Below, piece after piece: positions 30,501-64,000 of a stretch of 64,000 nt of DNA. Each line of letters opens with the position of its first letter. The first letter of the stretch is position 1. The position numbers were made by a program, and so were the translations under genes. This stretch comes from Amphiscolops sp. MND2022 (lineage: Eukaryota): assembly GCA_964187785.1 (NCBI GenBank), contig OZ076409.1, forward strand, positions 66,032,001-66,096,000, given 5' to 3'. The notes beneath the pieces were generated by a model that saw only the letters and a list, made by a program, of their open reading frames with translations, searched no databases and had not been told where the DNA came from.

Positions 30501-31339
30501 TGATGATAATCCAGCAAAATTTGCAAAATATTTTATAGTGATTAGCAATTGCTACTGGTCTATGTTTAGACCTTGTAGGGATGTGATGTAAAGAATAATT
30601 TTTATTCTGACCCTTGAAACATGACGTTATGATGATTAAGTAACAATGGTGGTCATGCTACTAAAAAATAACACTCAATAAGATCACTTGAGAAGAGACC
30701 CTCTTTGTCAGTTTTCCATCACAATCATTCGAAAAAAGACCTCCACACAATACAGTCACTCACTTTGTCAAACAACCCCATAATTCCCAATCTTTGCAGT
30801 ATTTTTTCTGTAAAGATAACTCCTACAATTTCGTTTCAATCGATTCCTTTGAAATTCAAAGATTTACGCACACAACTTTGCTTTTTATCATGGGAGACAA
30901 AAAAAACAGACGATTAAGGAGAGTAAAAACAATAAAAGAAGCAAAGTACTGAATAATCTTCACATTAGCTTGAGTGTTGTGATAAACTTATTATATAGAT
31001 ATGGCAATGATCCGAATATAAGACAACTGGACAACCTCCTTGACGCTTTTTTTATTGGTTTGTCGCAATAAGAACTATCACAACTCGCAGTGATAATTCC
31101 GTTGATAATTCATTTTTTCAATTCAAGGTTTTGTTTCAAACACTCATTGCTTGACAGTGGTGGTTGTTTTTCGGTGAGATTGACACACACTCAAATGTGG
31201 TATTCCTGCAAATGGTTAGGTTTCGAGGTTGAGCTTCGATGGAAAACAACGGAACGTACGATGCTTTCGAGTGTCTGAAGCACTCATGGTTGATAGAATA
31301 GAAAGGGTAAATTAAAGGCTTTGCAACGGATGGATCCAT

Positions 31340-33729: not shown

Positions 33730-33860
33730 GGGTGGGCGAAAATAGGTCGAAGGAACGGGATCGAAAATCAGAATTAGTCCTCAGGTCGACATACCAAATT
33801 TTTGAATGGGATCGAAACAATTCGGATCGAAATTTTCATGACGTAGTCAGATATGTTCAC

Positions 33861-34008
33861 TGTCGTGGGGGAAAACACTACTTGCAGGAAGTTTCTATTC
33901 GATAAGCATTCATCTGAAGTATACATACAACAATTAGGTTAACATAAATAACACAACGACATTATATAACAGTATTAATAACTACATATATATATTACAT
34001 TCAAAACA
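33861..34008 (-). repeat. 3' LTR
   Basis: Direct repeat of 38439-38586, preceded on the minus strand by a polypurine tract. Confidence 0.95.
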
Positions 34009-34030
34009 CTCCTTCCCGCTTCGAAAGTCT

Positions 34031-35140
34031 CTAGTTCATAGCCGACACAAAGTCGCTTAGGTATGTAGGAGGTTTCATGTTCCTAGCCGAGCGTCGCAAG
34101 GTGGCAGCGGGAGAGTCCGGGCTGAATTGAGATTCCTTTATTGGTTCCACAGATTTACGTGGTTCACCTTCGGTTCTGATGTCAGGACCCGATGTTCTGA
34201 TGTCTACATCGGTCTCCTTGTCTTTGTATTGACCTGCTGGTTGTGAGGTCGTTCCTTCATTGTCAATATCCGGCGGTCGTCGAGAGAGGTCACTTGTAGA
34301 AACAGTGTCAGCTCGCCCATCGCCAAAGGAGACTCGTGCAAGGTGAGGGGAGATGACTTCGGATATCTGTACAGGCACAACGGGAGCTTGGTCTTTCGCC
34401 CTTACAAATTTCCGGAGGTACGCGGGAGCGTCTGCTCTGAGCCAAGGTGCGCTACTGGAGGGACGGATCAGCGGCTCGCCGCGTTTGAAACAGAAGAAGC
34501 GATCATGAGGGCTCTCCTTGGTTACGGTATTGATAAGTGTCCGAATCGACAAGAGCGCTGATGGTAGGACACTTTCCCAGTCAGTTAGTGGGCGGTTTGT
34601 GGAGTGTAGCAGGCACTGAACTGCTTTCCACACAATTCCGTTGTAGCGCTCGTTTTGGCCATTGCCCTGGGGGTGGTAGGGCGTAGTTTTGGAGGTCGCA
34701 ACTCTATTTTGGCGGCAGAAGTTTTGGAATTCCGATGAGACGAACTGTGTGCCCCGGTCAGAGTGAATGAACCCAGGTGTTCCGAAGATGGCAAAAAGTG
34801 TTGAAAGACACTTGATGACGCTACTAGACGTGATGTTCTGGAGAGGGAAGGCGAAGGGAAACCTGCTAAACTCATCCACCACTGTGAGAAGCTATTGGTT
34901 TTTGGTTCTAGTCATTAGTTTGGGGCCAACAATGTCGATTGATAGTCGCTCCCAAGGTTTGGAGGATCGAATAAGATCGCTGCCGGGGGGTCGCAAAAAG
35001 CGCGGTTTCCATAGAACGCACGTTTTGCAGTTTTCGGTAACCTTTTTGCCTCATCTAAAGATATTGGAACTTTGTGTCTTTGAATGTATTCGTACAGTCG
35101 GGTCACTCCTGGATGTGCAAGTGTTTCGTGTAGGGTTTTA
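34031..35140 (-). pseudogene. Integrase (frameshift near 35045, stop near 34895)
   Basis: HETLAH...CKTC zinc finger across the frameshift; SIDIVGP, VVDEFSRF, IHSDRGTQF, GNGQNER. Confidence 0.9.
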
Positions 35141-36714
35141 CAGTTGGGCTGTAGGGACGCTAATCGAGACAGGGCGTCAGCTGACACGTTCTGACAACCT
35201 CTCTGGTAGCCTATCTCGAAGTTGTATTCCGAAAGTTCCAGGCGCCAGCGAATCAGTTTGTCATTCTTCACTCTGGAAGAGTTGGGTACAAATATGAAGG
35301 AGAGGGCCTTTTGATCGGTGCGAACTAGAACCCGTGACGTCCGTAACAGGTCTGAGAAACGGAGGAAGCCTTCCAAGATAGCCATAGCTTCCCGTTCAAC
35401 CACCGAGTACGCCATTTCGCTATGTTTAAGAGTTCTCGAGAAGAAACCGACAGGTTTGTCGTTTTGAGTGAGTGTCACTCCGATACCGGTCCCGGATGCA
35501 TCGGTTTGGAGAACGAGAGGCTCGTTTGCCCGGGGCAGCCAAAGTACGGCAGAGGTAACTTCTTTCTTGAGAGTTGCGATAGCCAGCCGAGAAGCTTGAT
35601 TGAGCGGAAAGGCCAGTTGTTTCTGTGTTGCGAGCAGGGTAGCAACCTTATTTGAGTAGTCTGCAATCCACTTTGCGTTGTATGCAAAGAACCCAAGAAG
35701 GCGTTTCAACTGTGACGAGTTTTCGGGGATAGGGAAATCCATCAGTGTCTTGATTTGGCTCGGATCGGGGCGTTTAGAGCCAGCTCCCACGATGTGACCG
35801 AGCATTGGTACTGTCTTACAGCCAAAAACGCACTTAGCTTTGTTCAGTGTCAGACCCTCAATCTCGGCCGCTTTCAGGAAGTTCTTCAGATTTTCTTGGT
35901 GTTCCTCCTCGGATCTGCCTCCGATGATCACATCGTCAAGATATGGGTGCGTTCGCTTCAGGTTGTGCCGGCGTACAAAGGCTGTCATTTCTCGTTGAAA
36001 TGCGGCTACAGCGTTCGTGACGCCAAAGGGAAGTCTTGTGAACTCAAAAAGTCGTCCGTTCACTTCAAACGCGGTGAATGACATGTCCTTGCGATGGAGG
36101 GGGATTTGATGATACGCAGACTTCAAGTCGATTTTCGAAAAAGTAGTGTTCTTGGCTGCTTGGTCAAGCAGGTCTTGCATATTTGGAAAGGGGAAGGCGT
36201 CTTTGGACGTATGACGATTAATTGTCTGAGAATAGTCGATCACCATCTGTGGCTTGGGTCCGTCCCTAACGACAAAGGCTTGAGCCCGCCAGGGAGACGT
36301 GGAAACTTTGATTATGCCTTCAGCGAGCATTCGGTTAACTTCTGACTCCATGAAGGCGACGTCTTGTGGTTTGTGACGACGCGATTTTGTAGCAATCAGT
36401 TTGGCACTATAAACTGTTTTGGAAAGTATGGTCGGAGGGGCAATTTTCATCGCCGGGAACTCCAATTCCTTGAGCCCGGCAGATATAACCGTCTCTGGTC
36501 GATCACCGCCGAATTCCAGTCTCACAGAGTGATGTTGTCGGAGAACGTCAAGCCCGAAATTAACATCCGCAACGAGGGGTTTTGCGACAGTGAAGAGAAC
36601 TTGGTAGGTCTTTTGGTTTACCTCAATTTTAGCTTTAGCGGTGCCTGACGTAATCAGAGAGTCGCCATTTGCCAAGGCAGTGACCTTCGCTTCGCGCGGA
36701 CATTCAGGTCTCAT
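34915..36714 (-). CDS. pol: protease C-half, reverse transcriptase, RNase H
   Basis: SPWRAQAFVV, KIDLKSAYHQI, LPFGVTNA, YLDD, LQTDASG, EREAMA, RTDQKAL, NVSADALSR. Disconnected from gag by two TGA codons and a frameshift at ~36690-36730. Confidence 0.9.
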   Translation of the reverse strand: MRPECPREAKVTALANGDSLITSGTAKAKIEVNQKTYQVLFTVAKPLVADVNFGLDVLRQHHSVRLEFGGDRPETVISAGLKELEFPAMKIAPPTILSKTVYSAKLIATKSRRHKPQDVAFMESEVNRMLAEGIIKVSTSPWRAQAFVVRDGPKPQMVIDYSQTINRHTSKDAFPFPNMQDLLDQAAKNTTFSKIDLKSAYHQIPLHRKDMSFTAFEVNGRLFEFTRLPFGVTNAVAAFQREMTAFVRRHNLKRTHPYLDDVIIGGRSEEEHQENLKNFLKAAEIEGLTLNKAKCVFGCKTVPMLGHIVGAGSKRPDPSQIKTLMDFPIPENSSQLKRLLGFFAYNAKWIADYSNKVATLLATQKQLAFPLNQASRLAIATLKKEVTSAVLWLPRANEPLVLQTDASGTGIGVTLTQNDKPVGFFSRTLKHSEMAYSVVEREAMAILEGFLRFSDLLRTSRVLVRTDQKALSFIFVPNSSRVKNDKLIRWRLELSEYNFEIGYQRGCQNVSADALSRLASLQPNCKTLHETLAHPGVTRLYEYIQRHKVPISLDEAKRLPKTAKRAFYGNRAFCDPPAAILFDPPNLGSDYQSTLLAPN

Positions 36715-36725
36715 TTGGCAGCTGT

Positions 36726-37643
36726 TCAGGCGCTGATAAAGGAGCCCGTGGATCCGGTATCAATCATTGCTTGAACTTGTTCATTTCTTCCGGCAAATTT
36801 GAGGCTGACATTCAGAGTGGCACGGGATATGCCAGTACTGCACAAAACGGCGGCAGTCTCGGGTTCATCATCAGATGAATGTTGTAAGACAGCAGCGGTC
36901 GATCTACATTCCGAAGCCCAGTGTCCTGCTTTCGAGCATTTGTGACAAGTGTCCTTTTTGGCTGGGCACTTTGAGCGTGGATGCTGTTTTAGACCGCAGA
37001 ACTGACAGCGTGGACGAGGCTTGTTCGAAACCTGTTGGGCAGCGGAGTTGCCGGGCCGATCAGGTTGCCGTCGAGTTGTCTGGGAGAACGGCTTGGTTGC
37101 TGCTACAGTTGAAGATTCGGCACTTCTGAAAGATTTGGAAAAGTCACTGGATAGTTCGATAGCACAAGCAAGCGATATGCAGCTGTCAATGTCGGCCTTG
37201 GAGTCTTCCAGTTCCAATAGTTTTGCCCGAATGTCGTCAGACCTGAGACCTGATATTAAAGCGTCTCGTACTAGATAGTCTTTATGTGCTTGGACGGTCA
37301 AGCTGGTGCATTCGCAGTCTTCAACAAGACGTTTCAGCCTTCCTGAAAATTGTACGATAGATTCGTCGTCCTTTTGACTGGCACTGAGCTTTTGATGACG
37401 GGCAAAGAGAACACTCGTGGGCTTCAGAAACTGTCTGTCCAATGTTCTCAGGGCGTCTGCAAACGTTGCAGAGCTTTCGAGGAGAGTGAAATAGTCGGAG
37501 CTGACAAATGTACGAAGAAAAACTAATTTTTCAGCATCTTCGGTTGTGCCATTGATGCGTAAGCCGTCCTCGAAACATTTCTTCCACCATTTCCATTTCT
37601 CGGGAGAAGGATTTGATGGCAAGTCGGGTAGTTTGAACTTCAT
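36726..37643 (-). CDS. gag with two CCHC knuckles plus protease active site
   Basis: CQFCGLKQHPRSKC and CHKCSKAGHWASEC; AMIDTGSTGSFIS. Confidence 0.92.
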   Translation of the reverse strand: MKFKLPDLPSNPSPEKWKWWKKCFEDGLRINGTTEDAEKLVFLRTFVSSDYFTLLESSATFADALRTLDRQFLKPTSVLFARHQKLSASQKDDESIVQFSGRLKRLVEDCECTSLTVQAHKDYLVRDALISGLRSDDIRAKLLELEDSKADIDSCISLACAIELSSDFSKSFRSAESSTVAATKPFSQTTRRQPDRPGNSAAQQVSNKPRPRCQFCGLKQHPRSKCPAKKDTCHKCSKAGHWASECRSTAAVLQHSSDDEPETAAVLCSTGISRATLNVSLKFAGRNEQVQAMIDTGSTGSFISA

Positions 37644-37679
37644 GGGCGTTAGAAGAGGGAATACAGCGCATAGACAATT

Positions 37680-37805
37680 GCTACGAGGAACTTAAGAAAG
37701 TACCGTTGTAGCAGAATCAGGCGATAGCTACGAGGAACTTAAGGAAGTACCGTAGTAGCGGAATGGTCGATAGCTACGAGGAACTTAAAGAAGTACCGTA
37801 GTAGC
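37680..37805 (-). repeat. Three tandem 33-bp hairpin-forming repeats between ORF0 and gag
   Basis: GCTACGAGGAACTTAARRAAGTACCGTWGTAGC at 37680-37712, 37727-37759 and 37773-37805; linkers of 14 and 13 bp. Confidence 0.9.
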
Positions 37806-37852
37806 TTAAACAGGAAAGTCGCTTACCTGAAGACAAGTCCAGCTTACGTGAC

Positions 37853-38419
37853 TTAGCGCGGGCAGGCGCAATGACCTCGAGGGCACTCGTATGTTCGGGG
37901 GTGACCTTGTTTGTCGATCTGGGGGCAGAAGGCTTTCCGAAGTACTCGGTTCTTCAAGATGGACGGAATTCCACTAATGGCCATAGGCTCTAGGTGGATG
38001 TCGTCTAGGGTAGTGTGTTTTTCGACGCAGTAAATGCTTCGAGATATGCCTCTGTAAAGCCAACGGCGATCGTTGTTGTCTTCTAGGAGTCGATTCAAGG
38101 CTTTGGCCTGGTCAGGAATGTTTAGCCGAGGAGGAACCGCGATAACGAAGACTCTGAGTGCAACTTCAGATGCTGCTACGGCAAGGTCAGAGATGTTCCT
38201 GGCAACAGTTCGAGTGGTGTCGGTTGGTAAGTCGTTGCCTCCGATGAAGAATACAATCAGATCAAACCGACCTTTCGCAGGTAAGAAAGGTCTCACGTCT
38301 CCAACTCGGGCACATGGTAGGACGAGAATATTGAAGTTAGGGAACGACAGGTTCCTTCCTTGTGAATCAGTAATAATCAGGTTACGAGTGGGTGAGGTCT
38401 TGAAGAGGTGATAACGCAT
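37853..38419 (-). CDS. ORF0: SGNH/GDSL hydrolase-fold protein inside the LTR element, upstream of gag
   Basis: Open 188-aa ATG ORF; block I LIITDS19, block II LPCA, block III FIGGN62DL, block V D139DIH142L; Cys/His-rich C-terminus. Confidence 0.8.
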   Translation of the reverse strand: MRYHLFKTSPTRNLIITDSQGRNLSFPNFNILVLPCARVGDVRPFLPAKGRFDLIVFFIGGNDLPTDTTRTVARNISDLAVAASEVALRVFVIAVPPRLNIPDQAKALNRLLEDNNDRRWLYRGISRSIYCVEKHTTLDDIHLEPMAISGIPSILKNRVLRKAFCPQIDKQGHPRTYECPRGHCACPR

Positions 38420-38438
38420 GAAGATTATCGAATAGAAT

Positions 38439-38586
38439 TGTCGTGGGGGAAAACACTACTTGCAGGAAGTTTCTATTCGATAAGCATTCATCTGAAGTAT
38501 ACATACAACAATTAGGTTAACTTAAATAACACAAAGACATTATATAACAGTAATTATAACTACATATGTATATTACATTCATAACA
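38439..38586 (-). repeat. 5' LTR
   Basis: Direct repeat of 33861-34008; TATTTAAG at 38521-38528 (minus strand) about 30 nt upstream of an Inr-like TTCAGAT. Confidence 0.95.
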
Positions 38587-38809
38587 TTCACATACCCCTA
38601 GTGCCCTGAATGCAGAAGCGAAGCGATGCGGAGCGACGTGTCATATGGCCATGCCTCAATGTTGCTACTTGGCGAAGGGAGCGAAGCGACCGAGCCACAC
38701 AACAAATACGATAAAATTCGACCGCATTCCATTCGATCCCTGCAATTCGCTCAAAAGGTTCGACCTCTGTCCTTCCGACCAGAAAAATTCGACCTATTTA
38801 CAGCCACCC

Positions 38810-40929: not shown

Positions 40930-42790
40930 TCACAACTTGACTGTAAGGGGGCGGCTGGTGTACTCCTCTTTCCCATTAATCTCAGGTCGTAACATAGCAA
41001 TATAAAGTGACTCCAACGTAACAAGAGTAGAAACATTGTAATGTTTATCAATAATTTTCAAATCGTAGGATTGCAACGAACCACAAGTGCGTAGATGCTG
41101 TCCAATTGGTGCCTTCTCCTTAAGATGCTCATTTACACGGGTTTTCAAATGCCTGTACGTCTGCCCGACATAGCAAGCATTACAGCTTGAACATGTAAAT
41201 TGGTAAATAACCCTGCTGCTGAGCTCCTTTGGAGTAGCTGGCTTCAAACTGGGCAATGCTGTCTTTAATTTTCTTGTCGTAAAAATAACATTCACGGGAG
41301 CAGCTTTTCTGATCTTCTCGCCCAATTTATCAGACAGTTTACCTCGATATTGCAAAATCAATACTTTTCGTTCATTTTTGTCTTTTTTGTTTTTGGTTTC
41401 CGAGGGTTCGGCTGATGGTACTTTCTCCCTCAGAATCTTCTCCAAAGTGTGTCGAACTATTGGGTTAAAGAAGGATGGAGGGTACTGATTAGCCTCCCAG
41501 ATTTCCTTGGCTCGGGTCAATCCGTCGTGAAATTTCTGCCAAGTTGAGCAAGCATTGTGAATGCGGTGCACCATACCTTGAATTGTGTTCCTTTTGTATC
41601 TCTGTGGAGCACACGCATGGTAAGACAAGCAAAGCCCTGTATCTGTAGGTTTTTGGTACCAGCCAGAAGTAAGCGGGCCATCTCTTCTCTCAATGACCAT
41701 ATCTAGAAAAGGTAATTGGGAGTCTGATTCTTTCTCAACAGTAAACTTCAGATTGGGATGTAAGCTATTTATTCTCCCGAGTAGGTCTTCGATTTCTTCT
41801 TCCTTAATTGAGCGCAAAATATCGTCCATGTACCTGTGGAATAATCTAGATGGTTCTTCCTGCCTTTGGGAGAGTTCCACTCTACACCCACAATGCCAAG
41901 TTCCCCTCGGAATCGATCTAATATATTTCACTGACCATCCAAGGCATGCTCTGTGGTACCAAAAAGCACATCGGTTGCATTGCACAGAATACCCTCTAGC
42001 GGTGACTCTTTTCCCACATTTCCCGCACGGGTCCTTTTCGCTCACTGAACATGTTTCTTCTTTTGATTTTTTTTCTTCCAGGCAGTCAATAGGGCCACCA
42101 AGAAATGGCTCAAAGGATTTCAACTATATGTTCGCTAGGAAAACAGCGAGCTTGGAACCGATCGCTAAACCATCTACCTGTTCAAACCACTCTTGGCCCA
42201 CTTGAAATTTCACATTTTTCACATCCACTTTCATAAGTTCCACAAAAATGCTCTTTTCGATTTGCTGTGGGCTATTGCTGTATATTTTGTCCGCTGCTAA
42301 TGCTATAGCCTCATCCACGGTGACATTTGTATACAGGCTAACAACATCCAGAGAAATCAGCACCTCGTCTTCTAAGTGCACTGTGTTGATGTCCTCTTTT
42401 ATTTTCTGTGTCGATGTCTCTATCCCTGCGCCTTCTACATCTTCTATAAGCTCAGCCAGGGCTGATGTCATAGCAACTCCCTGGTAGCGATAACACTGGT
42501 CTGAGTGGTTTTCCCTTTTTGTGTATCTTCGCTAGCCCATAGAGTTTGGCAGGCTGAGCTCCGCAGCTTCTAGAACGGTCGTAGAATTTTTGATCGATTT
42601 TGCCGTCCTTGAGAAATGCATTTAGTTTTCCATTTAATTCTCTTTCCGCTTTCAGTAAAATATCGTGTCCAATCCCTTGTAGTTTTTTGAACTGTGGCCC
42701 GTCCATGAGTTTCGTCAATTTTTCGTTGTAAAGTTCATCACTCATGACACAGAAACCCAAACCTTTATCAAAAGGCACAGTTATTGGGTT
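40930..42790 (-). mobile_element. Penelope-like element (RT + GIY-YIG endonuclease), 5'-truncated, with one stop and one frameshift
   Basis: PFDKG, LYGLAKIHK..PLRPV, SLDVVSLYTNV, QVDGLAIGS, RYMDD, LPFLD, YQKPTDTG; GIY-YIG VIYQFTCSSCNACYVGQT..RVNEH..LESLYI..IN. Confidence 0.95.
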
Positions 42791-52400: not shown

Positions 52401-55400
52401 GATGACTTCACTATAAAGGTGCGTCAAGAAGAAAGGCGAAAGCGTGAACGCGAGGCTGAAATAGCGGCGAAAAAGAAGCGAGACGAAGAGAGAAGAAAGA
52501 TGTTGGACAAGAGAGAAGCAATTCTGAAAGAGCAGCGAGATAAAGAAGTGTGTATCAGTTGAATTATTCTGCATTTGTTGCACCAAATTATAGTTAAATC
52601 AACCAGCTTACTTTGTTTGATCATTTCATGTTAGAGCATGTCGACTGAAACTCGATAATTTTAACAAATGATGCGAAATCTACAGTTTCATAAATCTATC
52701 TATTCAACTGAGCATGTTCATGGCATTCTCACAATCATGAACATAAGTAGGGATTGAGAAGATAAGATTCAATTTCATTGAGTTTTGGAAAAACAACAAG
52801 ATGTATTTAAAAGCTCCCGAATAGGACGTAAAAGGAGCAAAGAGATGCTTTTCGAGTTTACGCCCTTTGAATCCAAGTTGAAACCAATGAATTCCAATCA
52901 ATGATGAAAATGACCCTTGTAGATGTTTTTATTGATTAGTTATAGAACAGTTCTAAAAGTTGTTTGCTGTCAATAATGTAGAGTAATGTAATATTTGTTA
53001 TTTTGTTTGTCAAGGCGACATTTTCCAGAGAATAATGATGCTTTTTTGTTCAAAATTTAGAAACGCGGCAAATTTCAAAAGGCTGAGGAGAAAAACGCTG
53101 AACGCGAGAAAATAAGCAAAGCTCGCACGACTGATTCTCAAAGTGAGGAGAAATCTCTGTCTGAAAAGGGAGACGGGGATGATACTCTTGAGAAAGGAGG
53201 ACTAGCGGGAGAAACCAGTAAAGCGGAGAAGACCATGAATAGTTCCGAAGAATCCAGGAATGAGACAACCAAGGTCCCTGCAACTTCTCGTGCATCCCGC
53301 TTGAAGGTTGGTTGCAATCTGTTCTGCAGAGTTTTATGCTGTTTCTGTTGACGTGTTCATTGTGACCTGACCTGTTACAGGATCTTCCGTCCATCAAGTA
53401 TTACACTCCAGCTGCTAAGGCAGCCAAAGCTGCTTCTTCAACTGAGCCAGGTTATTTTTCAAGGTTCCTCGAAGCGTATTACAGTCAACTCCGGTTGTTT
53501 TTGGTATTTCTGTGTAAGCGGGAATAATAAAATACTAGAATCATTTTTTTCGGATCAGCCAATCTTACAATCAGTACAAAATATCTTGACTAGGCGAAAT
53601 GGATTCTGTTAGCAGTAAGCGATCGCTTGTTGTTTTATGCAATTGATCGTTCGCTGCGAACTTTTCAAAAGTTGATTTTACCTAGCAGCATTGACTTTTA
53701 TTAGAGAATAATTTTTATTCATGTAACGGAGCTTTATCTCGGATTTGAATTTTTTCAGTGAAACTTATTTGGATTGATTTTTTGCTAAATCCAGAAATTA
53801 GGGTTGTTTTCTAAAAATTTACTCTGAATTAAATGTCTGCAAATTTCTCTAATGAGATTTTATGACAAAGAAATTTTCAATTTTTAAAACTAGTACTTTT
53901 GATTTTTTTTTTGGAATTTTTTGCTTTTGCCGAAATATTTCAGCTCCAAAGGAGGTCAAGCGTGCAGGAGTCTTAGTTCCCTATAACCGAAATTTGTTAT
54001 AGGCAACAATTTTTTTTCTGATGTTTGAAAAATCGTTCGTGCACAAAACTCATCAAAATTACATAGAAAACGCGAAGTTGGAATAAGCTTGCGGTATTCA
54101 TTTCCCTGAGATTCGAATGATTAGGTGTAAACGACATAATGATGTCTGACTTAGCCTATGCATCGTAGTTATTTCGTTGACTGTATCATCTTGACGAAAT
54201 TCAAAAAGTACTTTTCGTGTGTCAACCAGAAGGATTTTAAGAGTGTCCCCTTTGATATATTTTAGATATCGATATCTCCACAAGCCCGAATGGTCACCAT
54301 TTGCATTTTTCTAACTTGAAGTCTTATTTTTTCTCTGGAAGAATTCAAGAAACGTCGAATTTTATTTTGCTTTTTAAGTCTCTTGTGCCAGTCTTTCTAT
54401 AATGTAATCTTGATGATAAAATATCGCTGTGTTTTCAGTGCCCGAAGAACGTTCATATTCCTTCCTCAACAGAGACATTGAAGACAATGAGAACACTGGA
54501 CGAGAACGAGGCGGTGGTGGTGGCAAACGAGGCTTCGGTCGTCGAGGAGGAGGTCCTGCTTCAGGCCGAGAAATCAAACCTTCTAGGGGCATGCATAATG
54601 GGGGCCCCACTTATTCCTCCCGCGGTGACAAGAAACGGGACCGAGACAACAGGAAAGATTCGAATCATTCCAGCCAGGACACATCTGTCTCTGTTGAAAC
54701 GCCTGATAAAGGGAAAGAAAAGGAAGAAGATAGGAAAGAACGGAAGGATGAATCAACAACAGAGGATGGTGTCATCGGCAAAGATACCCCTGACCAGGCT
54801 AAGTCTACTACCGAAGGCGAACCGAAAAAGCAGCCTTGTATTGTTAAGTACCCCAGAGATGCACCTTCGGATGGTAAGGGCGGCAAAAACAGAGACGGAC
54901 CTCCAAAATCGAAGGGAAAACAAAACCGACGTCAAGGAGCTGCTGATGACTGGGGAATATACGATGACTCGAGGCAGGGTAGTCATGGACAGTACTATGA
55001 TTGTCCTCCCGCTTTCTATTCCAGTTCTTGGTCGCGAGGTGGGGGAAAAGGTGGCGGAGGGTCTCATCATGGAAGCTACTCCTCAAGAAATGGAGGCGGG
55101 GGTTATAACCAACGCCAATATGATTATGGATACGGCCATAACCGCAATTCGTATGACTTCGACCGTTATGTTGATAGACCTCCTTCATCTTCGGGTGGTC
55201 AATCTGGAAAAGGTGGTCCCCAGAAAGCTCCTCCCCCGGAGAAAATTAACCGTGGAAGCAAAGCATTCGCTGGTGAAAGTAAACCCGCCGCCGTTTTTGA
55301 GTCAGCCGAGAGAAGTTTGAAAAAAGCAGAAGATGGTGGCAAGCCTCCTCGTTTCAGTGACAAGCGAAGAGCTACTGCATTGGCGGGCAACCAAAACTCA

Positions 55401-55418
55401 GTTAACGCTGATCCGTAG
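46443..55418 (+). CDS. UPF3: Regulator of nonsense transcripts 3 (UPF3/Smg-4); join(46443-46600,46670-46860,46935-47107,52395-52547,53061-53306,53381-53450,54439-55418), 1971 nt, 656 aa
   Basis: All introns GT-AG and phase-consistent. RRM-like TKVVVRCIPATLTEQEL...RFYMGFK...FDGYIL..VVELAPY..DAKQGSIDQDAEYLAYVETY; TPLI motif; charged coiled coil; EJC-binding-like RLKDLPSIKYYTP; AATAAA at 55495-55500. Confidence 0.88.
47416..47843 (-). mobile_element. Helentron/HINE-like element (reverse orientation) in UPF3 intron 3
   Basis: CACTATAAT..GCCGG...GCGCCGACTAAAA is the reverse complement of the family 5' end. Left boundary approximate. Confidence 0.5.
48163..49790 (-). mobile_element. Second CRE-like non-LTR retrotransposon, 5'-truncated and degenerate, in UPF3 intron 3
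   Basis: SQKGTTQGDPLAMAMYG, WYADD, GHRVLGS; CACG...ALHC..GG....RHNEIRD, EPKLQPL, ARLDI, LVFATTGG, RTKVSFAL..S...IRG. Confidence 0.85.
49955..50321 (+). mobile_element. Helentron/HINE-like non-autonomous element
   Basis: 5' TTTTTAGTCGGCG...CCCGACT; 3' GGCGCCGACTTGG-GCCG-TTCC-CGGC-TTGTT. Confidence 0.7.
50943..51225 (+). mobile_element. Second HINE-like family carrying an antisense tRNA-like cassette
   Basis: 5' TTTTTGCACATGACGAAGTCAATGTGCA stem-loop; 3' CTTCGTCATGTG inverted repeat; hairpin GCGAAGC-ACC-GCTTCGC; ends TGTGTT. Confidence 0.6.
51045..51116 (-). pseudogene. tRNA-derived sequence (pseudo-tRNA / SINE head)
   Basis: A box TGGCACAGTGG and B box GGTTCGAATC at tRNA spacing, followed by TTTT; D and T stems poorly paired. 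Confidence 0.7.
51552..52098 (+). mobile_element. Helentron/HINE-like non-autonomous element
   Basis: 5' TTTTTAGTCGGCGC...TGCCGACTATTACAGTG; 3' GGCACCGACT...GTCTTGTT. Confidence 0.6.
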
Positions 55419-57811
55419 TGTGTGTGATTGCGGAAGGCGGTCGAGGTGTGAGTCAACAACACGAGAAGCAAGAGACTGTTGAAAGCGAGTGTTCAATAAA
55501 ACTTCATATACAGTGAAAGGCGTGCTTCATCGGCAGTTATACGAAAAACAACGAATATCTCTGGTTCCAAGCAAGGGGTCGGAATTCCGTGAAGAACTGA
55601 ATCCAAATGACCGTGGGTTCCACGTTACGATTCTGCAGTGAACTCATTTGGACGAAGTTTCGAGTGTCCTCAACAGACCCAAAATGGAAATTTCAATAGC
55701 CGCTTGGTCAAGATTCAGAAAACAATCCCCTTAAATTTCAGAGTTGCTTTGTTGCGTTGAAGAAAGACGTCTTCAATCAAAACAAATCTAACTCAAATGT
55801 TATTTCCCATCACAAATTTGCGTTATATTTGTCCCAGCTGAAAATAATTGAGTTTTTATGTGTAGTCTTTTTGGACAGAAGCTAACTCGCTAGCGAAACA
55901 TGAGAAAGCAGCCGTTGAGTATTATGATCCTGGAAACCGTTAACATTCGATCCGCCCGTTTTTGACTTGGGTTCAAAGCAGTTTCATTTTTTGTCATTTT
56001 GAGAAAAGTACAAATACAGTGACTTGATACACTTCGGTACCAAAACGTTCAAAGAGTTCAATAACGAAAATTTTCAAGCGCAGTCCTTCAAATTTCGATC
56101 AGAATATTACAACAGTATTTTTGAAAGCGAATAAAAGTTATATCATTTGGCACATTGAATTTTGACATTTTTCGAAAAGTTTCATGCATGACTCTTCTAT
56201 AACTTGCATATAACATTTTCTGAAAACGTTCGAGATATGACACCGCAAAATGCGGATATTAAATTTTGATTCCGTAAAGTAATTGCATTAGTTCACTGAA
56301 AGCTTTGATAATCAAAAGGATGAATGCAAGGAGTCATCACTCCCTAGTATTTTTTACTCGAATCCAGAGGTTTATTCTTCATTGAAGTGACAAAATTAAT
56401 TGTCCAAGATTTGAGTCATTTGCACTTTTTTGCATAAATTCGAGGGATTTTTTGGAAAACACCGTTAAACTTCCGGGTAATTCCCGCACTGAACTATTTC
56501 AGCAACAAACATTCAAAGAGTAAACCGTTTTACCTGATCTTCATTTTTGGAAACTTTTTCAAAGAAAAAATCAGCTGTCTTCATAAATACAAATGATACA
56601 GAAGGCTTAAAAACTTGCAGGAAAAAGTGCCATCATTCGATATATATTGAAACTTGATGAAACGGAGGAGGAGATAGATTAAAATGGCACCAAGATCTAA
56701 CTGATCAGGATTTCCTGCACTTGTTGTCCAGGACTCTATCAATTAGACAGCTTCAATGCTGACACTGGACCACGTCACCGAAGATGCTGACGAGCAACAA
56801 TGGTAAGTATATATTAACTATTTTCAGGAAAAAAAAACAGAAAAACAAAAAAATAAATTCCTTTGTTTTATTGACAATGAACTTGCTTTGTATCTTACAA
56901 TATTTGAATCAACAAACATCACCTTATTTATCTGAATTCTGGGATCCAGATTTTCTGGCTTGAAATAGCTGTACTGTATCCCCTTCAACGCCAGCTTCTC
57001 TCTGGTTTCTGATATTATATTTTGTTAACTGGTGATTGGAGAAACCAATAATAACATATCATTGGGCACTTACTGATTCTAAGCAATTTTCAAAAGTTTA
57101 GATATTACCACAACTGCATATATGAAACGATTTTTCGTCGTTGATTTCTGTTGAAGGAACTCCATCTTCAGAGTATAGAATTGGAGTAGAGCAAATATGG
57201 TTTTTAAAAAACGCCGACAGATGATTTTTATTGAAAACAATTCATATTGATTTCAAAAAATATATCCGTGCGCGATCCTGAATTCAATTAGAACTCTGCA
57301 TATTAACAACGGTATCTACAAAGATGCTCAATTCTGTTTAAGGCTAAGTCTACGCATGATTACACATGATAAAATTCCCTACTCAGGATTATATATGGAA
57401 AGTTCCCGGAGAGAAACAAAACCAGGAAATAAGTGAAATCCAACGAAATTGATGAATTACATTCTTCAAGTTGGATTATTGGAAAGTGAATTCGATCAAC
57501 CGAACATAATGATGACTGACTTAGCCTATGCATCGTAGTTATTTCGTTGACTGTATCATCTTGACGAAATTCAAAAAGTACTTTTCGTGTGTCAACCAGA
57601 AGGATTTTAAGAGTGTCCCCTTTGATATATTTTAGATATCGATATCTCCACAAGCCCGAATGGTCACCATTTGCATTTTTCTAACTTGAAGTCTTATTTT
57701 TTCTCTGGAAGAATTCAAGAAACATTGAATTTTATTTTGCTTTTTGAGTCTCTTCTTGTGCCAGTATTTCTATAATGTAATCTTGATGATAAAATATCGC
57801 GGTGTTTTCAG

Positions 57812-58788
57812 TGCCCGAAGAACGTTCATATTCCTTCCTCAACAGAGACATTGAAGACAATGAGAACACTGGACGAGAACGAGGCGGTGGTGGTGGCAAA
57901 CGAGGCTTCGGTCGTCGAGGAGGAGGTCCTGCTTCAGGCCGAGAAATCAAACCTTCTAGGGGCATGCATAATGGGGGCCCCACTTATTCCTCCCGCGGTG
58001 ACAAGAAACGGGACCGAGACAACAGGAAAGATTCGAATCATTCCAGCCAGGACACATCTGTCTCTGTTGAAACGCCTGATAAAGGGAAAGAAAAGGAAGA
58101 AGATAGGAAAGAACGGAAGGATGAATCAACAACAGATGATGGTGTCATCGGCAAAGATACCCCTGACCAGGCTAAGTCTACTACCGAAGGCGAACCGAAA
58201 AAGCAGCCTTCTATTGTTAAGTACCCCAGAGATGCACCTTCGGATGGTAAGGGCGGCAAAAACAGAGACGGACCTCCAAAATCGAAGGGAAAACAAAACC
58301 GACGTCAAGGAGCTGCTGATGACTGGTGAATATACGATGACTCGAGGCAGGGTAGTCATGGACAGTACTACGATTGTCCTCCCGCTTTCTATTCCAGTTC
58401 TTGGTCGCGAGGTGGGGGAAAAGGTGGCGGAGGGCCTCATCATGGAAGCTACTCCTCAAGAAATGGAGGCGGGGGCTATAACCAACGCCAATACGATTAT
58501 GGATACGGCCATAACCGCAATTCGTATGACTTCGACCGTTATATTGATAGACCTCCTTCATCTTCGGGTGGTCAATCTGGAAAAGGTGGTCCCCAGAAAG
58601 CTCCTCTCCCGGAGAAAATTAACCGTGGAAGCAAAGCATTCGCTAGTGAAAGTAAACCCGCCGCCGTTTTTGAGTCAGCCGAGAGAAGTTTGAAAAAAGC
58701 TGATGGTGGCAAGCCTCCTCGTTTCAGTGACAAGCGAAGAGCTACTGCATTGGCGGGCAACCAAAACTCAGTTAATGCTGATTCGTAG
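57812..58788 (+). pseudogene. UPF3: Second copy of UPF3 terminal exon with premature stop
   Basis: Acceptor TTTTCAG retained; GGA>TGA at 58327-58329. Confidence 0.8.
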
Positions 58789-61179
58789 TGTGTGTGATTG
58801 CGGAAGGCGGTCGAGGTGTGAGTCAACAACACGAGAAGCAAGAGACTGTTGAAAGCGAGTGTTCAATAAAACTTCATATACAGTGAAAGGCGTGCTTCAT
58901 CGGCAGTTATACGAAAAACAACGAATATCTCTGGTTCCAAGCAAGGGGTCGGAATTCCGTGAAGAACTGAAACCAAATGACCGTGGGTTCCACGTTACGA
59001 TTCTGCAGTGAACTCATTTGGACAAAATTTCGAGTGTCCTCACTAGACCCAAAATGGAAATTTCAATAGCCGCTTGGTCAAGATTCAGAAAACAATCCCC
59101 TTAAATTTCAGAGTTGCTTTGTTGCGTTGAAGAAAGACGTCTTCAATCAAAACAAATCTAACTCAAATGTTCTTTCCCATCACAAATTTGCGTTATATTT
59201 GTCCCAGCTGAAAATAATTGAGTTTTTATGTGTAGTCTTTTTGGACAGAATCTAACTCGCTAGCGAAACATGAGAAAGCAGCCGTTGAGTATTATGATCC
59301 TGGAAACCGTTAACATTCGATCCGCCCGTTTTTGACTTGGGTTCAAAGCAGTTTCATTTTGTGTCATTTTGAGAAAAGTACAAATACAGTGACTTGATAC
59401 ACTTCGGTACCAAAACGTTCAAAGAGTTCAATAACGAAAATTTTCAAGCGCAGTCCTTCAAATTTCGATCAGAATATTACAACAGTATTTTTGAAAGCGA
59501 ATAAAAGTTATATCATTTGGCACATTGAATTTTGACATTTTTCGAAAAGTTTCATGCATGACTCTTCTATAACTTGCATATAACATTTTCTGAAAACGTT
59601 CGAGATATGACACCGCAAAATGCGGATATTAAATTTTGATTCCGTAAAGTTATTACATTAGTTCACTGAAAGCTTTGATAATCAAAAGGATGAATGCAAG
59701 GAGTCATCACTCCCTAGTATTTTTTACTCGAATCCAGAGGTTTATTCTTCATTGAAGTGACAAAATTAATTGTCCAAGATTTGAGTCCTTTGCACTTTTT
59801 GCATAAATTCGAGGGATTTTTTGGAAAACACCGTTAAACTTCCGGGTAATTCCCGCACTGAACTATTTCAGCAACAAACATTCAAAGAGTAAACCGTTTT
59901 ACCTGATCTTCATTTTTGGAAACTTTTTCAAAGAAAAAATCAGCTGTCTTCATAAATACAAATGATACAGAAGGCTTAAAAACTTGCAGGAAAAAGTGCC
60001 ATCATTCGATATATATTGAAACTTGATGAAACGGAGGAGGAGATAGATTAAAATGGCACCAAGATCTAACTGATCAGGATTTCCTGCACTTGTTGTCCAG
60101 GACTCTATCAATTAGACAGCTTCAATGCTGACACTGGACCACGTCACCGAAGATGCTGACGAGCAACAATGGTAAGTATATATTAACTATTTTCAGGAAA
60201 AAAAACAGAAAAACAAAAAAATAAATTCCTTTGTTTTATTGACAATGAACTTGCTTTGTATCTTACAATATTTGAATCAACAAACATCACCTTATTTATC
60301 TGAATTCTGGGATCCAGATTTTCTGGCTTGAAACAGCTGTACTGTATCCCCTTCAACGCCAGCTTCTCTCTGATTTCTGATATTATATTTTGTTAACTGG
60401 TGATTGGAGAAACCAATAATAACATATCATTGGGCACTTACTGATTCTAAGCAATTTTCAAAAGTTTAGATATTACCACAACTGCATATATGAAACGATT
60501 TTTCGTCGTTGATTTCTGTTGAAGGAACTCCATCTTCAGAGTATAGAATTGGAGTAGAGCAAATATGGTTTTTAAAAAACGCCGACAGATGATTTTTATT
60601 GAAAACAATTCATATTGATTTCAAAAAATATATCCGTGCGCGATCCTGAATTCAATTAGAACTCTGCATATTAACAACGGTATCTACAAAGATGCTCAAT
60701 TCTGTTTAAGGCTAAGTCTACGCATGATTACACATGATAAAATTCCCTACTCAGGATTATATATGGAAAGTTCCCGGAGAGAAACAAAACCAGGAAATAA
60801 GTGAAATCCAACGAAATTGATGAATTACATTCTTCAAGTTGGATAATTGGAAAGTGAATTCGATCAACCGAACATAATGATGACTGACTTAGCCTATGCA
60901 TCGTAGTTATTTCGTTGACTGTATCATCTTGACGAAATTCAAAAAGTACTTTTCGTGTGTCAACCAGAAGGATTTTAAGAGTGTCCCCTTTGATATATTT
61001 TAGATATCGATATCTCCACAAGCCCGAATGGTCACCATTTGCATTTTTCTAACTTGAAGTCTTATTTTTTCTCTGGAAGAATTCAAGAAACATTGAATTT
61101 TATTTTGCTTTTTGAGTCTCTTCTTGTGCCAGTATTTCTATAATGTAATCTTGATGATAAAATATCGCGGTGTTTTCAG

Positions 61180-62156
61180 TGCCCGAAGAACGTTCATATT
61201 CCTTCCTCAACAGAGACATTGAAGACAATGAGAACACTGGACGAGAACGAGGCGGTGGTGGTGGCAAACGAGGCTTCGGTCGTCGAGGAGGAGGTCCTGC
61301 TTCAGGCCGAGAAATCAAACCTTCTAGGGGCATGCATAATGGGGGCCCCACTTATTCCTCCCGCGGTGACAAGAAACGGGACCGAGACAACAGGAAAGAT
61401 TCGAATCATTCCAGCCAGGACACATCTGTCTCTGTTGAAACGCCTGATAAAGGGAAAGAAAAGGAAGAAGATAGGAAAGAACGGAAGGATGAATCAACAA
61501 CAGATGATGGTGTCATCGGCAAAGATACCCCTGACCAGGCTAAGTCTACTACCGAAGGCGAACCGAAAAAGCAGCCTTCTATTGTTAAGTACCCCAGAGA
61601 TGCACCTTCGGATGGTAAGGGCGGCAAAAACAGAGACGGACCTCCAAAATCGAAGGGAAAACAAAACCGACGTCAAGGAGCTGCTGATGACTGGGGAATA
61701 TACGATGACTCGAGGCAGGGTAGTCATGGACAGTACTACGATTGTCCTCCCGCTTTCTATTCCAGTTCTTGGTCGCGAGGTGGGGGAAAAGGTGGCGGAG
61801 GGCCTCATCATGGAAGCTACTCCTCAAGAAATGGAGGCGGGGGCTATAACCAACGCCAATACGATTATGGATACGGCCATAACCGCAATTCGTATGACTT
61901 CGACCGTTATTTTGATAGACCTCCTTCATCTTCGGGTGGTCAATCTGGAAAAGGTGGTCCCCAGAAAGCTCCTCTCCCGGAGAAAATTAACCGTGGAAGC
62001 AAAGCATTCGCTAGTGAAAGTAAACCCGCCGCCGTTTTTGAGTCAGCCGAGAGAAGTTTGAAAAAAGCTGATGGTGGCAAGCCTCCTCGTTTCAGTGACA
62101 AGCGAAGAGCTACTGCATTGGCGGGCAACCAAAACTCAGTTAATGCTGATTCGTAG
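61180..62156 (+). other. UPF3: Third copy of UPF3 terminal exon, open reading frame intact
   Basis: Acceptor retained, ORF open to TAG at 62156, AATAAA downstream; 3-nt deletion and several substitutions relative to copy 1. Confidence 0.8.
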
Positions 62157-64000
62157 TGTGTGTGATTGCGGAAGGCGGTCGAGGTGTGAGTCAACAACAC
62201 GAGAAGCAAGAGACTGTTGAAAGCGAGTGTTCAATAAAACTTCATATACAGTGAAAGGCGTGCTTCATCGGCAGTTATACGAAAAACAACGAATATCTCT
62301 GGTTCCAAGCAAGGGGTCGGAATTCCGTGAAGAACTGAAACCAAATGACCGTGGGTTCCACGTTACGATTCTGCAGTGAACTCATTTGGACAAAATTTCG
62401 AGTGTCCTCAACAGACCCGAAATGGAAATTTCAATAGCCGCTTGGTCAAGATTCAGAAAACAATCCCCTTAAATTTCAGAGTTGCTTTGTTGCGTTGAAG
62501 AAAGACGTCTTCAATCAAAACAAATCTAACTCAAATGTTCTTTCCCATCACAAATTTGCGTTATATTTGTCCCAGCTGAAAATAATTGAGTTTTTATGTG
62601 TAGTCTTTTTGGACAGAATCTAACTCGCTAGCGAAACATGAGAAAGCAGCCGTTGAGTATTATGATCCTGGAAACCGTTAACATTCGATCCGCCCGTTTT
62701 TGACTTGGGTTCAAAGCAGTTTCATTTTGTGTCATTTTGAGAAAAGTACAAATACAGTGACTTGATACACTTCGGTACCAAAACGTTCAAAGAGTTCAAT
62801 AACGAAAATTTTCAAGCGCAGTCCTTCAAATTTCGATCAGAATATTACAACAGTATTTTTGAAAGCGAATAAAAGTTATATCATTTGGCACATTGAATTT
62901 TGACATTTTTCGAAAAGTTTCATGCATGACTCTTCTATAACTTGCATATAACATTTTCTGAAAACGTTCGAGATATGACACCGCAAAATGCGGATATTAA
63001 ATTTTGATTCCGTAAAGTTATTACATTAGTTCACTGAAAGCTTTGATAATCAAAAGGATGGATGCAAGGAGTCATCACTCCCTAGTATTTTTTACTCGAA
63101 TCCAGAGGTTTATTCTTCATTGAAGTGACAAAATTAATTGTCCAAGATTTGAGTCCTTTGCACTTTTTTGCATGAATTCGAACAAACTAATTCGAGGGAT
63201 TTTTTGGAAAACACCGTTAAACTTCCGGGTAATTCCCGCACTGAACTATTTCAGCAACAAACATTCAAAGAGTAAACCGTTTTACCTGATCTTCATTTCT
63301 TCATTTTTGGAAACCTTTCAGAGAAAAAATCAGCTGCCTTCATAAATACAAACGATACGGAAGACTTAAATACTTGCAGGAAAAAGTGCCATCATTTGAT
63401 ATATATTGAAGTTTGATGAAATAGAGAAGGAGATAGATTAAAATGGCACCAAGATCTAACTGATCAGGATTTCCTGCACTTGTTGTCCAGGACTCTATCA
63501 ATTAGACAGCTTCAATGCTGACACTGGACCACGTCACCGAAGATGCTGACGAGCAACAATGGTAAGTATATATTAACTATTTTCAGGAAAAAAAAACAGA
63601 AAAACAAAAAAATAAATTCTTTTGTTTTATTGACAATGAACTTGCTTTGTATCTTGAAATATTTGAATCAACAAACATCACCTTATTTATCTGAATTCTA
63701 GGATCCAGATTTTCTGGCTTGAAATAGCTGTACTGTATCCCCTTCAACGCCAGCTTCTCTCTGGTTTCTGATATTATATTTTGTTAACTGGTGATTGGAG
63801 AAACCAATAATAACATATCATTGGGCACTTACTGATTCTAAGCAATTTTTCAAAAGTTTAGATATTACCACAACTGCATATATGAAACGATTTTTCGTCG
63901 TTGATTTCTGTTGAAGGAACTCCATCTTCAGAGTATAGAATTGGAGTAAAGCAAATATGGTTTTTAAAAAACGCCGACAGATGATTTTTATTGAAAACAA

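Follow-up and report, generated by a model that had tools for sequence, protein, structure and literature searches.

The Ty3/gypsy LTR retrotransposon on the minus strand of the window (the whole stretch of 64,000 nucleotides of Amphiscolops sp. DNA that was analysed) probably starts reverse transcription without a tRNA, by self-priming from a fragment cut from the front of its own RNA, a reading to which we assign a probability of about 0.8 from sequence comparison. A preliminary description of this DNA had proposed tRNA-independent priming in a gypsy element outside the chromoviruses, and the proposal is now supported by the covariation of primer site and LTR across families, by the behaviour of control elements with a TGG site and by copies in which the primer site is extended.

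Transcription would begin in the LTR near position 38517, as one copy and a TATATAA motif at -29 suggest, and part of the RNA is trans-spliced to a 31-nt host leader at 38492/38491, as leader-LTR junctions in DNA copies show. An arm of the LTR, which is complementary to the primer-binding site and covaries with it, would pair with that site in vivo, whether or not the RNA carries the leader, and a cut at 38471/38470, by RNase H if the analogy with Tf1 holds, would liberate a 3'-OH, so that the freed front end would take the role of a tRNA and be extended by reverse transcriptase. Such a primer, about 47-52 nt in length, would be paired over its last 12-15 nt only, and from it a strong-stop DNA of ~33 nt would be made and then transferred to the 3' repeat. 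The extended copies suggest that plus-strand synthesis would copy the primer into the site, so that arm and site stay matched, and that it would occasionally reach the first base of the RNA and so generate such copies. Among the points against self-priming are that the normal halt 12-15 nt into a longer primer lacks an explanation and that the overlap available for strand transfer is short.

Architecture of the element and its primer-binding site

The element is 4.7 kb long, has its hairpin at its left end and lies, like all of its features given below, on the minus strand. The order gag-protease-reverse transcriptase-RNase H-integrase, two TG..CA LTRs, a purine tract and a target duplication are all found, as in Ty3/gypsy elements generally, and its reverse transcriptase matches that of Ty3 at only 153 bits. 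The 5' LTR (38439-38586) and the 3' LTR (33861-34008), each of 148 nt, are identical at 142 of 148 positions and are flanked by the target-site duplication GTGAA (upstream 38587-38591, downstream 33856-33860); as this measures 5 bp, assignment to a group with 3-bp duplications was rejected. ORF0 (37853-38419, 188 aa), which resembles SGNH/GDSL hydrolases, is followed by gag with a CCHC knuckle and the start of the protease (36726-37643), by the end of the protease, reverse transcriptase and RNase H (34915-36759), by the integrase core and tail, without a chromodomain (34031-34891), and by the polypurine tract (34009-34022). Frame breaks interrupt gag, pol and integrase in the window copy, one lying toward pol and another ahead of the integrase core. 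Three repeats of 46-47 nt separate ORF0 from gag (37670-37814). Elsewhere in the window a minus-strand frame at 40930-42123 carries a PHD-like finger, the end of a reverse transcriptase and a GIY-YIG-like motif and appears by eye to be Penelope-like, and at 54134-64000 a 3.37-kb unit is present in three tandem copies that are 94-100% alike. Long tandem arrays with tRNA-Lys(TTT) and tRNA-Arg(TCT) genes, in units of about 193 and 300 bp, occur in the genome (L031-L060).

The 5' LTR is followed by a single A (38438), identical in all ten families compared, and then by a putative primer-binding site of 13 nt that has no TGG (38425-38437). Positions 38437-38425 are the perfect reverse complement, at 13 of 13 nt, of the LTR arm at 38483-38471, which is the predicted 3' part of the self-primer and holds AATAGA at 38477-38472. 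Between them lies a loop of 32 nt (38439-38470), which is formed by the end of R and U5, contains a GT-rich tract and is the predicted template of the strong-stop DNA. None of 2000 dinucleotide shuffles of the window LTR attained 13 nt of complementarity, and the match is therefore not ascribed to chance; the fold of the hairpin has a z of -2.92, with one of 200 shuffles equally good, and the pairs between arm and site have probabilities of 0.77-1.0 in the ensemble predicted for a context of 190-220 nt. Both the lack of a tRNA site and the 13-nt pairing with the element's own LTR, as first described, are thus borne out.

A comparison of the site with host tRNAs, which had been suggested as a check, yielded a best match of 5-7 nt among 31 tRNA and leader loci, the tRNAs being those of the Lys and Arg arrays and so part of the full set, and an Rfam search of the LTR region gave no match under E 1 and two at chance level (E 1.3 and 7.5). 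Since half-tRNA priming is described for copia lineages in the text available from PMC6317226, a tRNA half or fragment might be supposed to prime here as it does in some of these, the match to the LTR being incidental. With such poor matches this is very unlikely, and the seven distinct pairing cores described below would each need a fragment of their own that was also equal to the LTR of the element concerned.

The stem was also said to continue past an internal loop in a helix of five base pairs, AUGAA with UUCAU. The helix is present in the window copy, but all five of its pairs are kept in only two of 30 copies of the same family (family A) and four of the five in 27 of 30. Within arm and site proper, the alignment of family A has 20 mismatches among 390 pair cells, 11 of them at the outermost pair, and a double change from G-C to A-U in two of the 30 copies, which as evidence of compensation is tempered by its consisting of two CpG-type transitions within one subfamily.

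A coupling of the stem to the translation of ORF0 had been put forward as well, and in the window copy the ORF0 AUG (38419-38417) does overlap the extended stem, here a helix of 4-5 bp, whilst the first AUG lies 18-38 nt past the LTR in all ten families. However, ORF0 is found in families A and C only, two of the ten, and the hairpin in all of them; the fifth pair is seldom kept, as noted, and the flanking helices differ between families. It is hardly credible on these counts that the stem serves to control ORF0 translation, and ORF0 is not needed for the hairpin. The product of ORF0, 40% identical between the window and family C, is probably an SGNH hydrolase common to these two families only, as judged from its sequence and a structure model. 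Its match to the SGNH/GDSL Pfam family in the window copy (E 0.0055) is below the cut-off, as are the Pfam matches in eight of the 13 rows of an ORF0 alignment in which S19, G60, N62 and H142 are nearly invariant; the model has a pLDDT of 78 (38 when built from a single sequence) and matches the PAF-acetylhydrolase fold at E 0.004, with no match under 0.001. Rotifer Vesta LTR elements and CR1/L2/RTEX retroelements likewise have an accessory SGNH/GDSL hydrolase-like ORF, according to part of PMC5408684, but ORF0 here lies between primer site and gag and in two sister families only.

Covariation of arm and primer site across families

Relatives were drawn from other loci of the same genome and from contigs of other hosts in genome collections. 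Ten families had a readable LTR end, which was established by comparison of two LTRs in six of them (the window, L062, L063, L092, L078 and L086) and by a hairpin scan just upstream of gag, without a second LTR, in the other four (L093, L082, L083 and L091); four clade loci with unreadable LTR ends were left out (L084, L087, L094 and L095). Every one of the ten shows CA, then A, then 12-15 nt perfectly complementary to its own LTR, and in each the paired stretch starts exactly 1 nt past the CA, with at most 3 of 2000 shuffles as good. The best match of every site is to the LTR of its own family, and cross matches extend over 2-8 nt outside one group of four families; these four have a common core of 10-11 nt, which leaves seven distinct cores among the ten families. 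In reverse transcriptase the window family is at most 58% identical to the others. Compensatory change among related families had been named as a check on the pairing, and it is found in the form of these 12-15 nt helices, kept in 10/10 families with seven different cores. Small extra helices in the predicted folds, for which the comparison is the three-duplex "pretzel" of the Tf1/sushi group, vary from family to family.

A TGG primer site is absent from all ten families, and the sites for tRNA-Leu, -Ser or -Arg that characterise Mag elements were not encountered in them. In the controls, which were 11 gypsy elements of the TGG type from the same genome, TGG stands within 3 nt of the LTR and the match to the LTR is 3-5 nt long, with none of the 11 exceeding 5. 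One further control was dropped with its LTR end unresolved (L178), and as two pairs are near-identical (L162/L166 and L164/L168) the 11 represent about nine distinct elements.

The arm ends 23-50 nt before the end of the LTR across the ten families and holds AATAAA or ATTAAA in five of them, the window arm having AATAGA instead. Pairing of arm and site in the 5' LTR may also mask a poly(A) signal, and it might be argued from the arm's position in all families, and from the hexamer at its end in five, that the hairpin is regulatory only, hiding the poly(A) signal of the 5' LTR, and that priming is left to some small RNA of the host, to part of a tRNA or to a protein. We consider this quite unlikely. 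The constant start 1 nt past the CA is where priming must occur, half of the arms have no canonical hexamer, there is no second candidate primer site and, in two copies considered below (L112 and L107), the arm together with the sequence preceding it has been copied into the site.

A quick tree built from RT-RNase H, with 27 rows, unites the ten families in one clade (SH-aLRT 93), the sister of which is a TGG lineage (SH-aLRT 99), and a quick tree of 51 rows left the sister fork unresolved; the rows of these trees include no chromovirus or Mag references. The search for a chromodomain was negative for the window and, at E 1, for seven of seven full-length relatives, and the domains listed for 120/120 homologues among the matches shown likewise include none. 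Homologues occur among nematode, insect, tunicate and fish records; the viral contigs searched yielded no relative of the clade, and metagenome contigs yielded one distant element with no LTR. Such LTR retrotransposons are also contained in records with bacterial titles (L082-L091), most likely as contamination from host animals. The clade may resemble Cigr-1.

Extended primer sites, spliced leader and transcription start

The 31-nt leader has 1904 exact genomic matches, is encoded by tandem genes with a GT donor and an Sm-like site, and is identical to a leader published for an acoel (PMC9911081, in the part available), so that it can be attributed to the host. Arrays of these spliced-leader RNA genes lie at G000:C1:15.3-16.4 Mb (L130-L148, L181-L209), in a unit of about 904 bp comprising leader, GT donor, hairpins and Sm-like site. 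Many dispersed repeats headed by the full leader joined to other sequence (L119-L129, L210-L239) constitute retroelement or retrocopy families, some of which have a downstream stretch complementary to the leader. The window itself has a 24-nt copy of the leader (30975-30998, 23/24) that has no donor GT and may mark the front of an old retrocopy.

During replication of the retroviral type the primer is copied back into the primer site. Pattern searches of the genome for LTR-site junctions of families A-E brought to light mis-copied insertions, in which the site is prolonged as the mirror of the sequence 5' of the arm. They account for three of 36 junctions in family A (L107, 47 nt; L109; L110, 116 nt), to which a variant is added (L243), one of six in family C (L112) and one of two in family E (L117, 36 nt), with none in families B (0/4) and D (0/3). 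A tighter version of a leader-pattern search gave 45 matches; one of the 30 examined, L112, has an upstream complement, and from the remaining 15 one was recognised as family A and retrieved. Every extension starts at the arm's last base and most finish with a jump into internal sequence.

The only copy unexplained by DNA fold-back is L112. It has two identical normal LTRs with the native acceptor, and its 5' LTR is followed by the 14-nt site, 2 nt and then the leader in reverse, complete at 31 of 31 bases down to its start. The leader-arm junction of family C occurs once in the genome and hence no DNA template for L112 was found. As far as its sequence goes, L112 would most simply be a DNA copy of an RNA primer, a trans-spliced RNA end of which every base between the first one and the cut was copied; alternatively, it could have arisen by a plus-strand jump onto co-packaged RNA. 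In L107 the extension reaches as far as LTR nt 70 (38517), beyond which stand two Cs that are absent from donor and landing site, and reverse transcriptases add untemplated Cs at a capped RNA end. L107, L109 and L117 fit either RNA primer copying or DNA fold-back. The extensions of L110 and L243 continue into U3, and these two copies were rejected as primer evidence, being DNA fold-backs; L110 (1360-1625, minus strand) is a mini-insertion of LTR, primer site and the inverted first 116 nt of the LTR with a 5-bp duplication, and is an integrated fold-back cDNA.

Self-priming might also use an arm located in the RNA's 3' repeat, once this had been trimmed back after the poly(A) signal, or one supplied by another RNA molecule. 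Both repeats contain the arm, which adjoins the predicted 3' end, and DNA copies do not distinguish an intramolecular from an intermolecular priming event. These arrangements seem to us unlikely, since L112 bears a spliced leader, a mark peculiar to 5' ends, and the extension of L107 stops at the inferred start and goes no further into U3; a second molecule may nevertheless lend its 5' end as the primer, which would be a variant of the reading preferred here, in which the primer is the cut-off 5' end of the element's own RNA.

The arm had been placed near the predicted 5' end of the transcript, behind a TATA-like TATTTAAG and a start near 38485-38496. To judge indirectly from the copied primers of L107 and L112, which reach 33-34 nt 5' of the arm, it does not form the extreme 5' end of the RNA in the way that it does in Tf1. 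As a promoter TATTTAAG (38528-38521) was rejected, since it is private to the window copy (1/30 family copies) and absent from the element's own 3' LTR, and the conserved motif is TATATAA, a candidate TATA box at 38546-38540, 29 nt before LTR nt 70 (TATATAAT in 26/30 copies). What the proposed start position holds is the leader acceptor, at 38492/38491. Native transcription more likely starts near 38517, because the extension of L107, a single copy, ends there and TATATAA lies 29 nt upstream. From this point a stretch of 26 nt (38492-38517), similar over its first 12-13 nt to how the host spliced leader begins at its 5' end, leads to the acceptor AG (38492-38493). Exactly here three family A insertions have the leader joined, fused at 38492/38491 in both LTRs, and these may possibly go back to a single event. 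They form a leader-LTR subfamily, at G000:C3:81.37 Mb, C4:71.61 Mb and C8:14.64 Mb (L149-L154, L244, L245), in which the leader replaces LTR nt 70-95. The sister lineage of the TGG type (L081, L096) also has a pyrimidine tract and AG upstream of its poly(A) signal, and the acceptor may therefore predate self-priming.

Comparison with known systems

Tf1 of fission yeast is the only element for which self-priming has been shown, with predictions extending to the chromoviruses related to it and to a single copia lineage of plants. No report of it in a non-chromovirus gypsy clade of animals was met with in the literature searched, outside which lie subscription journals and Repbase/GyDB, where a prior note is possible; nor did that literature include a paper linking spliced leader, retrotransposon, self-priming and reverse transcription together. 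By a narrow balance we favour a wider proposal, in which an animal-wide gypsy clade would have dropped tRNA priming independently of Tf1/sushi, the primer would be the element's own capped 5' fragment of ~47-52 nt, an acceptor in the LTR would add the leader to the primer in trans-splicing hosts, and the arm would double as a poly(A) signal. If this is true, a widespread animal clade with a tRNA-primed sister would represent a further, derived origin and would speak against hairpin priming being simply ancestral, an existing idea (PMC3601003, in part). The extended copies indicate, from genome sequence alone, what the primer is and where its 3' and 5' ends lie, and so supply exact coordinates for RNA tests; they also tie host trans-splicing to retrotransposon replication, and mis-copied insertions offer a general way to read the primers and start sites of LTR elements.

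The Mag lineage, as summarised in Table 1 of PMC3286476, has short LTRs, a length of 4-5 kb, mostly a 5-bp duplication and one or two ORFs, with primer sites that match tRNA-Leu, -Ser or -Arg. Compared by description, the clade is like it in short LTRs, compact size and 5-bp duplication, but the Mag tRNA sites are missing here. Cer1 of Caenorhabditis elegans is a gypsy element the RNA of which can be trans-spliced to the host leader, although, in the portion of PMC3315495 available, its full-length RNA is not; it differs in having a tRNA-Pro site, whereas the present clade shows a trans-spliced end at the primer site. For the TAR copia elements of plants (Houba, Osr-1) and for Tcn1, self-priming has likewise been predicted, from a match of at least 10 nt between site and 5' LTR, and TAR shows that it arose more than once (PMC6317226, in part); these differ from the present clade in superfamily or chromovirus status, in their plant hosts and in having no leader.

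The closest parallel is with Tf1 and Tf2 of Schizosaccharomyces pombe, Tj1 and the Tf1/sushi chromoviruses, which have a site complementary to their own LTR and use no tRNA (PMC7175516, PMC4600332 and bioRxiv 2022.12.06.519325, each in part); in Tf1 the RNA's initial 11 bases pair with the primer site and are released by RNase H cleavage (PMC7175516). The clade is like these elements in its own-LTR primer site, the lack of a tRNA and the geometry, but has neither the chromodomain of Tf1 nor, apparently, its use of the first 11 bases. By one account, the Tf1 primer is reportedly not removed. The arm here, unlike that of Tf1, follows a trans-splice acceptor at a distance of 8 nt and the inferred start at about 34 nt, it overlaps the position of the poly(A) signal, and only 23-50 nt remain between it and the end of the LTR; the sister lineage, moreover, is one with a TGG site. 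What the sequences present is probably a known mechanism in a new form, with unusually direct genomic evidence for the identity of the primer.
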